The notes under the pieces are model-generated. The model was not told the DNA's origin, searched no databases, and saw nothing but the letters and a program-made list of their open reading frames with translations. A stretch of DNA of 64,000 bases from Pseudomonadota bacterium. Its GTDB lineage: Bacteria > Myxococcota_A > Polyangia > Haliangiales > Haliangiaceae. The translations under genes and the position numbers were made by a program. Location of the stretch: assembly GCA_023386455.1 (NCBI GenBank), contig JAEWJO010000803.1, forward strand, positions 1,069 to 65,068, read 5' to 3'. Each line of letters begins with the position of its first letter. Position 1 is the first letter of the stretch. Below, piece after piece: positions 47,807 through 53,682 of the stretch.

Positions 47807-48844
47807 CTAGCGGCGGATCGAGCGGAGCATGCTGTGGGCGAGGCCGAACGCGGTCAGGCTCCATGCCGCGAGCGCGACGTAGATGAAGACGTTCGAGATC
47901 TCGCCGAGGAAGCTCGCATCGATCGCGTGCGACAGCCGGGCGGTGCAGACCGTGTACATGCCGAGCGGGAAGACCGCGCCCCAGTAGAGCGGATCGTAGC
48001 GCAGCGGGAACTTCTTCACGCCATGGCGCCACACGCCGAGGATGAGCAGCATCGGGATCCACCAGGTCGCGGTCGCCCACCACATGAGCGTCAGGCCGCG
48101 CACGAACGGCAGGATCTGCTCGATCACGGGCGAGTGCGGTGCGGCGGCGACGAGCATCGTGCCCGCGAGCGTCGAGATCGCGGCCGCGCCCATGTTGATC
48201 CAGTACGGAGGCGCGAGGTCCGACGGGCTCATCGTGAAGAACGTGTAGCGATAGAAGATCAGCGAGATGATCCACAGGTAGAGCATCCCGCCGCCGAGCC
48301 ACATCGCGAGCGAGAACACGAGCACACCGGGGGCGTGCTCGTGGAGGTGCGGTGCGAGCTGCGCGCCGAGGACGGAGACCGACTGAGCCGCGACGACGCT
48401 GATGAGCCAGCCGCCATTGATGCCGTCCGCGAGCGTCGGCTTCTCGGTCTTCACGGTGAGCAGCGTGAACACGGTGTAGACGAGGCCCGCCCACAGGACG
48501 ATACCCGCGATCCACAGGACGAACGCGGCGGTCACGCTGTGACCGATCACGAGGCACTGCGAGCCGAGGACACAGGTCGCGGCGACCATCGTGAAGAAGC
48601 CGACGGCGCGGCCGTGGTGGACGAAGTCCGCTCGCACGCGATCGGGATGACGGATCACGCGCGCGATCGTCAGGATCCAGAGAAGCGGATAGAAGCCGAG
48701 GTTCAGCGCGAACAGCGCGACCGCGATCGGATGGAAGCCGATCAGCTCGCACGCGATCGACTCGATGCCGGTCGCCATCACGAGCGCGAAGTACGCCGGG
48801 TGCATGCCGGCAAGGCCTGCCGGGGGCGCCGGCTGCGTCGTCAT
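47807..48844 (-). CDS. TDT (TehA/Mae1/SLAC1) family anion channel/transporter
   Basis: Start at MTTQPAPP. 10 TM segments. HPAYFALVMATG and WWATATWWIP motifs. ATGA overlap with the upstream small gene. Confidence 0.85.
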   Translation of the reverse strand: MTTQPAPPAGLAGMHPAYFALVMATGIESIACELIGFHPIAVALFALNLGFYPLLWILTIARVIRHPDRVRADFVHHGRAVGFFTMVAATCVLGSQCLVIGHSVTAAFVLWIAGIVLWAGLVYTVFTLLTVKTEKPTLADGINGGWLISVVAAQSVSVLGAQLAPHLHEHAPGVLVFSLAMWLGGGMLYLWIISLIFYRYTFFTMSPSDLAPPYWINMGAAAISTLAGTMLVAAAPHSPVIEQILPFVRGLTLMWWATATWWIPMLLILGVWRHGVKKFPLRYDPLYWGAVFPLGMYTVCTARLSHAIDASFLGEISNVFIYVALAAWSLTAFGLAHSMLRSIRR

Positions 48845-49068
48845 CGCTTGAACAGATATCGGAGGAGACCGAGGTTGAGGAGCAGGCAAGCGGCGCTCGC
48901 ACCGAGCGCAGGCCAGACCGCGGCATCGTCACCGCCGAGGTAGGCGTTCATCGTCGCGGTCAGGAGCCACAGCTGGAGCACGACGAGGATCAGGACGAAG
49001 CACACCACGCCGGTGATCACGGTGGTGCGTTGCGCGCGCGTGAGCTGACGCTGCGGCCGGGTGCTCAT
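48841..49068 (-). CDS. 75-aa two-TM protein, unknown function
   Basis: MSTRPQRQLTRAQRTTVITGVVCFVLILVVLQLWLLT... ATGA overlaps on both sides (Rieske stop, TDT start). Confidence 0.55.
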   Translation of the reverse strand: MSTRPQRQLTRAQRTTVITGVVCFVLILVVLQLWLLTATMNAYLGGDDAAVWPALGASAACLLLNLGLLRYLFKR

Positions 49069-49721
49069 ACCGTTCGCTCCTTGACCGCGATCGCGAAGAT
49101 CTCGTCGCCGACAACCTCGAGCTCGATCGCGGGGAGCGGGCGAGGTGGCGGTCCGGCGATGTTGCGGCCGGTCGCGAGGTCGAAGATGCCCTCGTGGCAG
49201 GGGCAGTACAGGATGCCCTCGTCGAGCTTCGGCACGACCGCGCACGACAGGTGCGTGCACTTCTGGTCGTACGCGAGGAGCTTGCCGTCGCGCGTGTGGA
49301 TGAGGAGACACGGGTCGTGCTCGGTCGGATACGTGAACATCGCGACGCTACCCGGCGGTAGCGCCGACAGCGTGCCGATCTTCGCGCGGCCCGGCGGCTT
49401 GCGGCGGCCTCGGACGAGGCTCTGCGCCGCGATCCAGGCCTGACCGGCGACGAACGCGCCGCTCGTCAGCACGAGGAACTTCGCGAAGTCGCGACGTGCG
49501 ACGAATTGATCCTCGGGCCAGTCGATCGCGAAGTCGCGGCGCCATCGCGGCTGCTCGTCCATCGGACGCTGATCGGGTGCGATGGTGACGTCCTCGGGAT
49601 CGCGGGTCGGCTCGTACACGTCGCCGCGCGCTGTCCCGGTCAGACCCTCTCGTCCCGGCGAGTCGATGCGCGGATCGAGCGTGCGATCCTCCTCGAAGCG
49701 GCGCTGCGGATCATCGGGCAT
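49065..49721 (-). CDS. Rieske [2Fe-2S] protein with a long N-terminal extension and one TM/anchor helix
   Basis: CTHLSC...CPCHEG cluster motifs. ARRDFAKFLVLTSGAFVAG (a twin-arginine-like motif plus a hydrophobic helix) starts at about residue 75. Confidence 0.88.
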   Translation of the reverse strand: MPDDPQRRFEEDRTLDPRIDSPGREGLTGTARGDVYEPTRDPEDVTIAPDQRPMDEQPRWRRDFAIDWPEDQFVARRDFAKFLVLTSGAFVAGQAWIAAQSLVRGRRKPPGRAKIGTLSALPPGSVAMFTYPTEHDPCLLIHTRDGKLLAYDQKCTHLSCAVVPKLDEGILYCPCHEGIFDLATGRNIAGPPPRPLPAIELEVVGDEIFAIAVKERTV

Positions 49722-52639: not shown

Positions 52640-52641
52640 GG

Positions 52642-53682
52642 TCAGGCCGATTCGATCCAGAGGCCGCCCTGCGCGAGCCCGAACAGCGCGCGCCGGCATG
52701 CCGGGCAGATTTCTTGATAGTGGCTGGCGCGGCTGTTCGAGACCTCGTAGCGGAACCCGAGCTCGCGCTCGACGGTGATGAGGTCGCGCACCATCTGCGC
52801 CGACGCGAACGGCCGGTCGCAGCGCTTGCAGCGTGCCTGCTCGCCGCGCTCTCCCTCGTCCTTGTAGAAGCCGACGCCGAGCTGCGCCGGGCGCTGGAAG
52901 ATGTGGAAGAACTTGCCGAACGGCAGCCACAGCAGTGTGACGATCACCGTGACCGCGTGCAGGATCGCGAGGAAGTCGTACGCGTAGCCGCGCAGCCACG
53001 TGTAGCTCATCGTCAGCATGAGACCTGTGATGCTGATCGCGGCGAGGAGCACGAGCGGCAGGATGTCCTCGGCGAACTGCTGCACCGCCTCGGCGCCGCG
53101 ATCGCGCATGCGGCGACGAAACGCGAGCATGACGCCGGCGAGCACGAGGAACGACGCCCACACGAGCCCGTGGAACGTGATGAACGCCGGCACCGAGTCG
53201 ACCGGGAACTCGCCCGCGGCGAACCCGAACAGGTACGTGCGATACGTGTCGAGGCGTCCCGGCACGGTCTCGAAGTGGATCCAGCCCCACACGAGCGGGA
53301 ACGTGATCGCGGCGCCGAGCAGGCAGCCCCACATCAGGAGGAAGTGAGCGAGCCCGCGCGCGACTCCCCGCCGGAAGATGAAGCGGTTGAGCCCGACCTC
53401 GACGACGGCGCGCTTCGCGAACCGCCACGTGTTCCGCACGAACCGGCTCGGCGACAGAAACGCGCGCCAGCCGCGCCGCCAGTACATGCGCGTCGGCGGG
53501 CGGCGGAGCCACATCGCGTAGCGGTAGGTGATCCCGAACGTCGCGAACAGCGTCGCGAACGTGTAGCCGACGAGCGCCGCGTCGAAGTGGGCGAGGTTGC
53601 GCGAGCCGAGCACGATCAGCGCCGCCAGCACGAGCGTGAACAAGGCGCCCCACCACGCGGCTCGCAGCGCGTCTCGGTTCAT
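52642..53682 (-). CDS. Polytopic membrane subunit with a NarI/DsrM-like helix signature and a C-terminal CxxC...CxxC domain
   Basis: Start at [12 protein letters not shown]. About 6 TM segments with conserved His residues. [13 protein letters not shown] motif. C-terminal CKRCDRPF...CPACRR. Ends 2 nt before the Mo subunit start. Confidence 0.75.

Follow-up and report, generated by a model that had tools for sequence, protein, structure and literature searches.

A six-gene operon conserved across bacterial phyla as a candidate membrane-bound, quinol-linked nitrate reductase system of new subunit composition

The DNA analysed here is a stretch of 64,000 nucleotides (the window) from a bacterium of the family Haliangiaceae, Myxococcota (GenBank assembly GCA_023386455.1, contig JAEWJO010000803.1, positions 1,069 to 65,068 of the forward strand). 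Its subject is a run of six minus-strand genes at 47807-53682, for which an earlier reading of the letters alone, referred to below as the sequence-only reading, had proposed a membrane-coupled complex of the nitrate reductase type. In the order of transcription, the genes encode a NarI/HdrE-like putative dihaem cytochrome b membrane subunit (52642..53682, 346 aa), a NasC-like catalytic subunit of the molybdenum-bis-pyranopterin guanine dinucleotide (Mo-bisPGD) type (50375..52639, 754 aa), an electron-transfer iron-sulfur (FeS) subunit with Cys groups for four [4Fe-4S] clusters of the FdnH/DmsB/HybA/HycB type (49725..50375, 216 aa), a Rieske [2Fe-2S] protein of the bc-complex type (49065..49721, 218 aa), a small membrane protein of the DUF6755 family (48841..49068, 75 aa, PF20540) and an anion channel or transporter of the SLAC1/TDT family (47807..48844, 345 aa, PF03595). 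The junctions between them measure +2, -1 (TAATG), +3, -4 (ATGA) and -4 (ATGA) nt, so that both the coordinates and the tight spacing of -4 to +3 nt given in the sequence-only reading were reproduced. An independent gene caller yielded the same six genes on the same contig in an ENA metagenome assembly. An intergenic region (53683..53826), which holds an 11-nt inverted repeat, separates the operon from a divergently transcribed gene for a hemerythrin-domain protein (53827..54312, plus strand, 161 aa; PF01814, 26.7 bits). The G+C content is about 69% throughout the window, and the closest homologues are found in Kofleriaceae and other Myxococcota.

The distribution of the operon was surveyed by scanning one genome per species. 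The membrane subunit was found in at least 264 species-level genomes, and the best 80 loci were kept. All sufficiently long loci among these 80 have the genes for the membrane, Mo, FeS, Rieske and DUF6755 proteins in this order on one strand. The hosts belong to the Myxococcota (Kofleriaceae, Haliangiales, Polyangiaceae and two Sorangium cellulosum genomes), the Acidobacteriota (Vicinamibacterales), the Planctomycetota (Tepidisphaeraceae, Phycisphaerae) and the Actinomycetota (Thermoleophilia, Acidimicrobiia), and a Deinococcus plasmid has the same five genes with a Mo subunit 56% identical to that of the window. The synteny survey that the sequence-only reading had suggested therefore returned a strict five-gene core order across five phyla, and chance adjacency of unrelated genes is excluded by it. 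The family is also large: an exhaustive search of 50%-identity representatives gave 237 clusters for the membrane subunit at E<=1e-30, and both the membrane and the Mo subunit form thousands of 90%-identity clusters each in public and metagenome data.

Identities to the window proteins across Myxococcota, Acidobacteriota, Planctomycetota and Actinomycetota (loci L002-L081) are 78-85% for the Mo subunit and 71-76% for the membrane subunit. Such unusually high values between phyla suggest recent horizontal spread, very strong constraint, or both. One metagenome-assembled genome (MAG) of the Phycisphaerae (L070, 5713-7276) has a gap of about 1.7 kb between the Mo and FeS genes with a 521-aa open reading frame (ORF) on the reverse strand, which may be an insertion element. 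Five MFD long-read MAGs (L042, L068, L077, L079, L081) have a Mo, FeS or Rieske gene that appears broken or partial in tblastn, with a frame change within the FeS gene of L042; these breaks are probably assembly frameshifts rather than pseudogenes.

Public labels for these genes vary. Homologues of the Mo subunit are called assimilatory nitrate reductase by JGI, and elsewhere the catalytic gene is named assimilatory nasC, 'nitrite reductase' or generic molybdopterin oxidoreductase, while the cytochrome b is labelled 'MFS transporter' or hypothetical. The label 'nitrite reductase', given to the Mo subunit in several Sorangium and deltaproteobacterial entries (P0071, P0102, P0109 and P0119 from Sorangium cellulosum, and P0044), has no support from domains or motifs.

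The catalytic subunit is made up of the Pfam domains Molybdop_Fe4S4 (PF04879), Molybdopterin (PF00384) and Molydop_binding (PF01568). It has the four-cysteine motif of the FS0 cluster, a Cys-Met context at the Mo ligand, an arginine in a GGRE motif and no signal peptide; the N-terminus shows no pair of arginines followed by a hydrophobic signal, just as had been read before, and the motifs quoted earlier for this and for the membrane subunit are all present. The top curated NCBIfam model is NasC (NF047855) with 779.7 bits, which is below its cut-off of 1100. Scores on the other models were 526.5 bits for formate dehydrogenase alpha (Fdh-alpha, cut-off 666), 355 for haloarchaeal NasA, 248-254 for the NapA models (cut-offs 904-930), 125 for AioA (cut-off 359) and 57.4 for narG (cut-off 1084). 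The margin of NasC over Fdh-alpha is 200-250 bits for the window protein and its Deinococcus orthologue, the latter scoring 787 bits on NasC and 594 on Fdh-alpha. For calibration, NasA proteins from clusters with narK or nrtA plus nirBD obtain 415-445 bits on the NasC model, and a genuine FdhF obtains 535 bits on NasC and 827 on Fdh-alpha.

The PDB holds no Nas or NarB structure, and the nearest solved relatives are of the FdhF type (403 bits), followed by Desulfovibrio NapA (295 bits). The active-site motifs were compared in an alignment with real NasA, NapA and FdhF sequences. At the Mo ligand, the family reads RLCMVSA...AFGIDR, where NasA has RLCM(S/A)S...AFG.D, NapA RHCMASA...TFGMDE and FdhF RVUHGPS. 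At the second motif, the family has (V/T)GQANGQG-GRE, NasA TGQPNAMG-GRE, NapA TGQPSACGTARE and FdhF RGQNNVQG-ACD. Every aligned family member has both the Cys-Met pair and (V/T)GQANGQG. The alignment shows that the catalytic His and Arg of formate dehydrogenase are missing and that the Met and Arg of Nas and Nap are present. Formate dehydrogenase as the identity of this enzyme was rejected despite the FdhF-type nearest structures, as the protein lacks the Fdh His and Arg and scores higher on NasC than on Fdh-alpha. The assignment to the Nas type made in the sequence-only reading is supported by RLCM and GGRE, which match Nas and Nap, and by NasC as the best model, though below cut-off. A neighbour-joining (NJ) tree was built with proteobacterial NasA, NapA and FdhF as its only references, and it places the family relative to these and not to Bacillus NasC or cyanobacterial NarB. 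The family was monophyletic in 200/200 bootstrap replicates, and its separation indicates a distinct lineage outside the proteobacterial Nas clade. Clustering with a non-nitrate clade such as formate dehydrogenase, which the earlier reading had named as the outcome that would overturn it, was found neither in the catalytic residues nor in the model scores; the small tree, on the other hand, gives a lineage of its own.

The FeS subunit contains four groups of four cysteines, as noted earlier, and is a polyferredoxin of the Pfam Fer4_11 type with neither a signal peptide nor a transmembrane (TM) segment. Its NCBIfam matches (HybA, DmsB, FDH-beta) are all below cut-off, and it reaches only 33.7 bits on the narH model (cut-off 524). 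The best solved relatives are FdnH (1kqf_B, 98 bits), PsrB (2vpw_B, deposited as 'NrfC protein') and HycB3.

The membrane subunit of the window matched no Pfam family, PF02665 and the cytochrome b families included, and gave weak NCBIfam matches to the membrane domains of TcuB, QmoC and TmcC. Divergent relatives of it do match PF02665 (NarI) or carry the name nitrate reductase gamma subunit. In an alignment of 42 sequences with 43-88% identity to the window protein, four histidines (H113, H171, H242, H260) never vary, nor do four cysteines (C285, C288, C326, C329). The AlphaFold2 model (pLDDT 90.3, pTM 0.83) consists of six long helices, amphipathic helices at 64-103 on the cytoplasmic side, a three-stranded sheet at 135-160 and a small C-terminal domain; the earlier count of about six TM segments followed by a C-terminal CxxC...CxxC domain fits this model and the invariant cysteines. 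With Foldseek, the only specific matches were E. coli NarI (chains 3egw_C, 1y5i_C, 1q16_C) and the membrane domain of mycobacterial EtfD (9ojn), at probabilities of 0.99-1.00 with weak E-values of 0.05-0.15. For NarI the TM-score was about 0.5 when normalised to NarI, with 19-21% identity. A sequence search of the PDB with the membrane-subunit profile found nothing.

The loop at 60-106 contains 14 lysines and arginines against 1 aspartate or glutamate. From this charge bias and from the model, both termini of the membrane subunit are predicted to be inside, with the Cys4 domain in the cytoplasm. An N-in topology agrees with the fusion of this protein to the cytoplasmic C-terminus of a 12-TM transporter of the MFS family, described below. 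With the protein oriented in this way, H113 and H260 would be close to the cytoplasmic side of the membrane and H171 and H242 close to its outer side. The histidine pair of TM6, H242/H260, is 18 residues apart, a spacing that matches H187/H205 in NarI. The natural reading of the model is that the four histidines ligate two putative bis-His haems spanning the membrane.

The Rieske protein has a variable N-terminal tail, a WR.DF.IDWP.D.YV.RRDF.KF motif, a single hydrophobic segment, a polybasic stretch and a Rieske domain (Pfam Rieske) with the boxes CTHLSC and CPCHEG. The best NCBIfam matches are PetC, the proteobacterial bc1 Rieske protein, QcrA and AioB, with a dioxygenase ferredoxin scoring about equally; all are below cut-off (AioB 35 bits against 95.65), and PF13806, the NirD/NasG type, is reached only at E 0.009. 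The best solved relative is the Rieske protein of the menaquinol-oxidising bc complex of Thermus thermophilus (1nyk/3fou, E 3e-13), followed by those of anammox and b6f complexes. A ferredoxin of the NirD/NasG or dioxygenase type was rejected for this subunit, its nearest solved relatives being bc-complex Rieske proteins.

Eighteen Rieske orthologues from five phyla, Deinococcus included, were aligned. The boxes C(T/P)HL(S/A/G)C and CPCH(E/A/D)G with two extra cysteines, the motif RR(D/E)F.(K/R)F directly ahead of the single hydrophobic segment and the WR.DF.IDWP.D.YV segment are kept in the same 17 of them, the single exception (L035) looking frameshifted. In bc-type Rieske proteins the two extra box cysteines form a disulfide. 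The sequence-only reading had overlooked this invariant twin-arginine motif (RRDF.KF in the window) ahead of a hydrophobic segment. Its match to the twin-arginine translocation (Tat) signal-anchor of bc1 Rieske proteins points to a cluster at the outer face. The charge pattern speaks against such a placement: six basic residues follow the hydrophobic segment, the N-terminal tail is acidic (14 lysines and arginines, 21 aspartates and glutamates), and by the positive-inside rule the Rieske domain would be inside. Basic residues following the hydrophobic region of a Tat signal are, however, a known feature for avoiding Sec, and the Deinococcus protein has a short tail starting with KSGKKK, which fits N-in. 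Judged from these sequence features, the Rieske cluster is fairly likely to sit on the outer face.

The DUF6755 protein matches PF20540 with 105.4 bits (gathering threshold 27) and has two predicted TM helices with basic ends, which suggest that both ends are cytoplasmic. Its gene directly follows the Rieske gene in every complete locus and on the Deinococcus plasmid, where the NCBI label of the orthologue is also DUF6755.

The last gene of the operon matches PF03595 with 186 bits (gathering threshold 27.9) and TIGR00816 with 99 bits (cut-off 237); a sequence search of the PDB with this TDT protein found no solved homologue. We counted transporter genes over the 54 loci with enough flanking sequence. 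A TDT gene follows DUF6755 in 38 of the 54, and the remaining 16 have a NarK-like MFS gene instead, which is located immediately upstream of the membrane subunit in 15 cases and downstream in one. No locus of the 54 has both transporters, and none has neither. Furthermore, the NarK-like MFS protein and the cytochrome b form one open reading frame, with the MFS part at the N-terminus, in 12 loci from Vicinamibacterales and some others (L033, L042, L051, L053, L057, L060, L062, L071, L077, L078, L080, L081). The fusion adds about 1.2-1.4 kb upstream of position 10001 or of the local start of the membrane gene, and it is also seen in the independent representatives P0363, P0416 and P0436. It probably explains why unfused cytochrome b proteins are named 'MFS transporter' at NCBI. 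The top family of the fused MFS parts is TIGR00886 (NarK), with 232-234 bits for P0363 and P0416 and 89 bits for P0436, and the MFS gene after DUF6755 in Deinococcus obtains 277 bits on the same model, all below its cut-off of 311.7. The NarK family is thus a putative assignment, taken solely from the rank of the hidden Markov model scores.

That every complete locus comes with an anion transporter of its own suggests a substrate which has to pass the membrane, and hence a cytoplasmic active site; the swap suggests that the TDT/SLAC1 homologue acts as a nitrate/nitrite porter. Channels of the SLAC1 family in plants conduct nitrate. The sequence evidence in this way favours passage of nitrate or nitrite through the membrane to an active site in the cytoplasm.

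An alternative places the enzyme on the outer side: the Mo and FeS subunits, already folded, would be taken across the membrane on the twin-arginine anchor of the Rieske protein, and nitrate would be reduced outside, with electrons running from Rieske to FeS to Mo on the outer face. RR(D/E)F.(K/R)F and both disulfide-type cysteines, kept in 17 of the 18 Rieske orthologues, agree with it, as does the proximity of this subunit to bc-complex and Aio-type Rieske proteins, and the Rieske subunit would be given a direct role in the wiring. The haloarchaeal Nar is likewise periplasmic and linked to genes for a Rieske protein and a cytochrome b (PMC3509893). Against it stands the dedicated anion transporter, which no complete locus lacks, which is often one protein with the cytochrome b and for which a periplasmic enzyme would have no need. 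In addition, the membrane subunit has its invariant Cys4 domain on the predicted cytoplasmic side, the operon has no Tat chaperone gene of the NapD, TorD or NarJ type, and the Nas, NarB and FdhF relatives are cytoplasmic enzymes. Cytochromes of the NarI family, too, pass electrons to cytoplasmic partners. Since no complete locus is without a transporter and the cytochrome has cytoplasmic features, we rate a periplasmic enzyme as quite improbable.

Genes within 10 kb of the operon were examined in the 80 loci. Genes for RIC/ScdA-type di-iron proteins occur in 23 loci, hemerythrins in 11, YwiC in 10, NosZ in 4 and NirK in 3, and several Vicinamibacteria have the RIC gene directly upstream of the operon on the same strand. 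Crp/Fnr regulators and sigma-54 response regulators also recur. Homologues of NirB, NirD, CysG and NrtA were found within this distance in 0 of the 80 loci, whereas in the control nas clusters NirB/NirD-type and transporter genes are adjacent. A canonical Nas operon was rejected, since no locus has a nitrite reductase or Nrt gene as the control clusters do. This is circumstantial evidence that the operon keeps the company of denitrification and nitric oxide stress genes rather than of nitrate assimilation; nirK, nosZ, RIC, YwiC, the hemerythrins and the Crp/Fnr and NorR-like regulators suggest a dissimilatory role as an entry step of denitrification.

The complex might nevertheless be assimilatory, that is, a quinol-fed version of NasC giving nitrite for ammonium assimilation, with the nitrite reductase encoded elsewhere. 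The catalytic subunit is nearest to the NasC model, its homologues are labelled assimilatory by JGI, and 12 loci have NtrC-type sigma-54 regulators close to the operon. Moreover, the Bacillus-type nasC is linked to a Rieske-type gene (PMC3475470), and the NasC of Paracoccus uses the ferredoxin NasG (PMC6618116). What speaks against an assimilatory enzyme is the lack of nirB, nirD, cysG and nrtA in all 80 loci, where verified nas clusters have them adjacent, the recurrent neighbours (RIC, YwiC, hemerythrin, Crp/Fnr, NirK, NosZ) and a Rieske protein of the bc-complex type instead of the NirD/NasG type. Sorangium, Kofleriaceae, Vicinamibacterales and Deinococcus are mainly aerobes. With many hosts of this kind and with a context that is circumstantial, we favour a dissimilatory role and keep the assimilatory one as an unlikely alternative that still has some weight.

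Taken together, the operon is best explained as a membrane-bound, quinol-linked nitrate reductase system of new subunit composition, probably dissimilatory, a reading of the sequences in which we have moderate confidence. The membrane-coupled complex of new composition proposed in the sequence-only reading is supported by the synteny, the transporter swap, the active site and the predicted NarI-like fold. The order of the genes and its conservation, the domains, the conserved ligands, the active-site motifs and the exchange of transporters are seen directly in the sequences; what the enzyme reduces, which quinol feeds it, where the soluble subunits lie, what the system does for the cell and what the Rieske protein contributes are inferred from them. 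The NasC-like Mo subunit and the FdnH/DmsB-like FeS subunit would be located at the cytoplasmic face, docked on the NarI-like putative dihaem cytochrome b, whose cytoplasmic Cys4 domain may aid docking or electron transfer. The bc-type Rieske protein, probably inserted by Tat and with its cluster at the outer face, and the DUF6755 protein with its two TM helices would complete the membrane module. The TDT/SLAC1 channel would take nitrate in and/or nitrite out, a task performed elsewhere by the NarK-like transporter, often fused to the cytochrome b. Menaquinol would be oxidised at the outer face of the NarI-like cytochrome, and the electrons would cross two haems to the cytoplasmic four-cluster FeS protein and from there pass through FS0 to the Mo centre, where imported nitrate would be reduced to nitrite. 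This would amount to a Nar-like redox loop built from non-orthologous parts.

Several observations weigh against this explanation. The catalytic subunit stays below the equivalog cut-off of the NasC model (779.7 against 1100 bits), it is only 31-34% identical to NasA of verified clusters containing nirBD, and 193/200 bootstrap replicates of the NJ tree place the family on the Fdh side of the split from Nas and Nap. Its pocket has segments of its own, HARGIEHH against SQGVNQS in Nas and TMGFNQH in Nap, and SQFLSG in place of the WH-containing segment of Nas and Nap (FL against WH), so that the substrate could be another oxyanion. The NarK-like scores are all below the TIGR00886 cut-off, and the fused forms show no clean first nitrate-signature motif and only a partial second motif (GLGNG), for which reasons the MFS proteins are called NarK-like and not proven NarK. 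Many hosts are aerobic heterotrophs, which makes an assimilatory role plausible. Finally, a simple Nar-like loop could dispense with the Rieske protein, so that the mechanism as given is incomplete: the Rieske and DUF6755 proteins are as conserved as the other subunits, though the loop scheme gives them no part.

The pocket segments, the NasC score below cut-off and the separate lineage in the tree would also suit a different chemistry altogether, either on another oxyanion (chlorate, selenate, tellurite, arsenate or similar) or as an oxidase sending electrons outward, from a cytoplasmic substrate via haems and Rieske protein to carriers in the periplasm. The TDT family has members for tellurite resistance and sulfite efflux, and in Aio the Rieske subunit is the electron exit. 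For the alternative transporter, however, no family scores nearly as high as NarK, the genomic context is that of nitrogen-oxide metabolism, and the catalytic His and Arg of Fdh are absent. In addition, nitrite oxidation would presumably be too high in potential to reduce a Rieske centre of the menaquinol type, and an outward flow of electrons would be expected to cost proton-motive force. Another chemistry therefore appears very unlikely to us, and the reverse-acting oxidase that the sequence-only reading had allowed for is not favoured, given the NarK-like best alternative transporter and the nitrogen-oxide context.

Returning to the quinol-linked nitrate reductase, the Rieske protein could be accommodated in three ways. 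It may belong to a Qo-like site, at which the first quinol electron goes to periplasmic carriers and the low-potential electron of the semiquinone goes inward; it may be a relay at the quinol site; or its signal-anchor may export the whole Mo/FeS module, as in Aio or the haloarchaeal periplasmic Nar (pNar). The first of these can be extended to a tentative and rather doubtful proposal, namely that the operon represents a fourth architectural class of prokaryotic nitrate reductase using Qo-type quinol bifurcation. The outer-face Rieske protein would take the high-potential electron of menaquinol and deliver it through periplasmic carriers to NirK, NosZ or a cbb3 oxidase, while the semiquinone electron would pass inward over both NarI-like haems and along the low-potential FeS chain to the NasC-type Mo centre. 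In spectropotentiometry of NarB, Jepson et al. reportedly found in 2004 that a Nas-type centre needs much lower potentials than Nar or Nap. A low-potential Mo centre of this type would explain why a Nas-type enzyme wired to quinol needs a Rieske protein.

The surroundings of the operon in the window agree with the earlier description of an island with nirK and nosZ and a single enzyme resembling nitrate reductase. NirK is encoded at 13154-14608 (plus strand) as a fusion in which two multicopper-oxidase domains are followed by a C-terminal cytochrome c; the gene for a SCO1/SenC copper chaperone is at 15363-15974 and that for NosZ at 36049-37983. A search with 20 MopB reference proteins found 50375-52639 as the only MopB gene in the window, and since the longest composition-filtered ORF of the window is 809 aa, there is no narG in it. 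Two RIC/ScdA genes (17609-18310, 42025-42687), two further hemerythrin genes (19877-20443, 53827-54312) and one YwiC-like gene (19129-19890), all on the plus strand, represent families that also recur beside the operon in other genomes. Additionally, an ORF of 769 aa at 1757-4066 (minus strand) combines COX1 (CcoN-like) and FixO (CcoO) domains in what appears to be a CcoN-CcoO fusion of a cbb3 oxidase, and it is followed by a FixP-like dihaem subunit at 964-1581 (minus strand). The plus-strand cluster at 21684-28860 contains two Mrp/NuoL-like antiporter subunits, a NuoD-like 49-kDa and a NuoB-like 20-kDa protein and a 2x[4Fe-4S] domain; it resembles an energy-converting complex of the Mbh/Mbx or Hyf type, with uncertain ORF boundaries.

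Four sigma-54-dependent activators are encoded in the window (7307-8839, 15978-17528, 20502-21467, 33100-35529), two of them with GAF domains (NorR-like). A loose sigma-54 promoter pattern matched the window 29 times, where shuffled sequence gave an expectation of 15; none of the 29 is in the region upstream of the operon. The upstream region at 53683-53826 gave no sigma-54-like match with up to 2 mismatches and no match to the sigma-70 consensus. The earlier statement on this region stands as to the sigma-54 element and fails as to the palindrome, because an 11-nt inverted repeat, TGCGGGATCGG / CCGCTCCCGCA with a 3-nt spacer, is present at 53703-53727, 20-45 nt before the first start codon. 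The upstream region, the inverted repeat included, showed no conservation in the related loci. Going by the missing motif only, the operon may be regulated differently from its neighbours.

Textbooks distinguish three prokaryotic nitrate reduction systems, Nar, Nap and Nas. The operon would add another architecture to these, one that links a Nas-type subunit to the membrane by way of a NarI-like cytochrome b, a bc-type Rieske protein and a dedicated transporter. Soil bacteria commonly carry it, and at present it is routinely labelled assimilatory; should it be respiratory, nitrogen-cycle inventories of soil and wastewater misassign an entry step of denitrification, and nitrate respirers are underestimated among Myxococcota, Vicinamibacteria and Phycisphaerae. 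The system would also be a naturally occurring case for testing if a Rieske centre and a NarI-type cytochrome can function together, and it would give functions to DUF6755 and to a bacterial SLAC1/TDT homologue. No description of the operon or of DUF6755 was found in the full-text literature searched, subscription-only papers being outside that search. The operon is thus apparently undescribed, and it fits neither the NarG/NarH definition nor the curated and genomic definition of Nas.

Among the known systems, NarGHI with NarK is similar in having a Mo-bisPGD alpha subunit, a four-cluster FeS beta subunit, a gamma subunit of NarI fold and dihaem type (both putative for the operon) and a co-encoded transporter, and the catalytic side is predicted to be cytoplasmic in the operon as well. 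The parts are different, however. Alpha is a Cys-ligated NasC-like protein of 754 aa, where NarG has about 1250 aa; beta is a 216-aa protein of the FdnH/DmsB type and not NarH; gamma has two extra N-terminal helices, a putative haem ligand (H171) on a different helix and a Cys4 tail; none of the six genes matches NarJ or another chaperone family; and the Rieske and DUF6755 subunits are added.

The soluble assimilatory enzymes NasC, NasA and NarB share with the catalytic subunit the FS0 motif, the Cys-Met context, the GGRE arginine, the lack of a signal peptide and a length of about 710-750 aa, and NasC-type enzymes work with, or are linked to, Rieske-type proteins (PMC6618116, PMC3475470). The operon has neither an NADH or ferredoxin partner nor a nearby nitrite reductase; in their place it has a cytochrome b in the membrane, an FeS protein with four clusters and a Rieske protein of the bc type. 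It differs from Nap in having no Tat signal on the Mo subunit and no nap accessory genes. FdnGHI and FdhF are comparable in the alpha-beta-gamma layout with a cytochrome b anchor, and they supply the nearest solved alpha and the FdnH-type beta, but the Sec/Cys-His pair and the RGQ arginine of FdhF and FdnG are replaced here by Cys-Met and (V/T)GQ.

AioAB also combines a Mo-bisPGD subunit that has no signal with a twin-arginine Rieske protein, and AioB is among the matches of the Rieske subunit. AioA has no protein ligand to Mo and a [3Fe-4S] cluster, whereas the Mo subunit of the operon has a ligand Cys; furthermore, Aio acts as an oxidase and has no four-cluster FeS subunit, cytochrome b or transporter. 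The Rieske/cytochrome b complexes (bc1, b6f, Thermus, anammox) resemble the operon in placing a bc-type Rieske protein beside a membrane protein of the (here putative) dihaem type and a small TM subunit. For those of anammox bacteria, it is proposed that one quinol electron is diverted to an unusual acceptor (PMC12954380). The partner in the operon has a predicted NarI-like fold with no match to the bc1/b6 families, and the operon has no cytochrome c1 or f and has a Mo enzyme attached.

The sequence-only reading had held that a Rieske protein together with a Mo subunit is otherwise the arrangement of arsenite oxidase. This is too narrow, as the haloarchaeal nar clusters (narB/narC) hold genes for a Rieske protein and a dihaem cytochrome b, for which a link to Rieske-dependent quinol oxidation was proposed (PMC3509893). 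In these clusters, too, the genes of a nitrate reductase are tied to those of a Rieske protein and a cytochrome b. The haloarchaeal pNar is of the NarG/NarH type with a Tat signal, an outward active site and a true bc-type cytochrome b, whereas the operon described here combines a NasC-like subunit that has no signal with a NarI-like cytochrome and a transporter that is always present.

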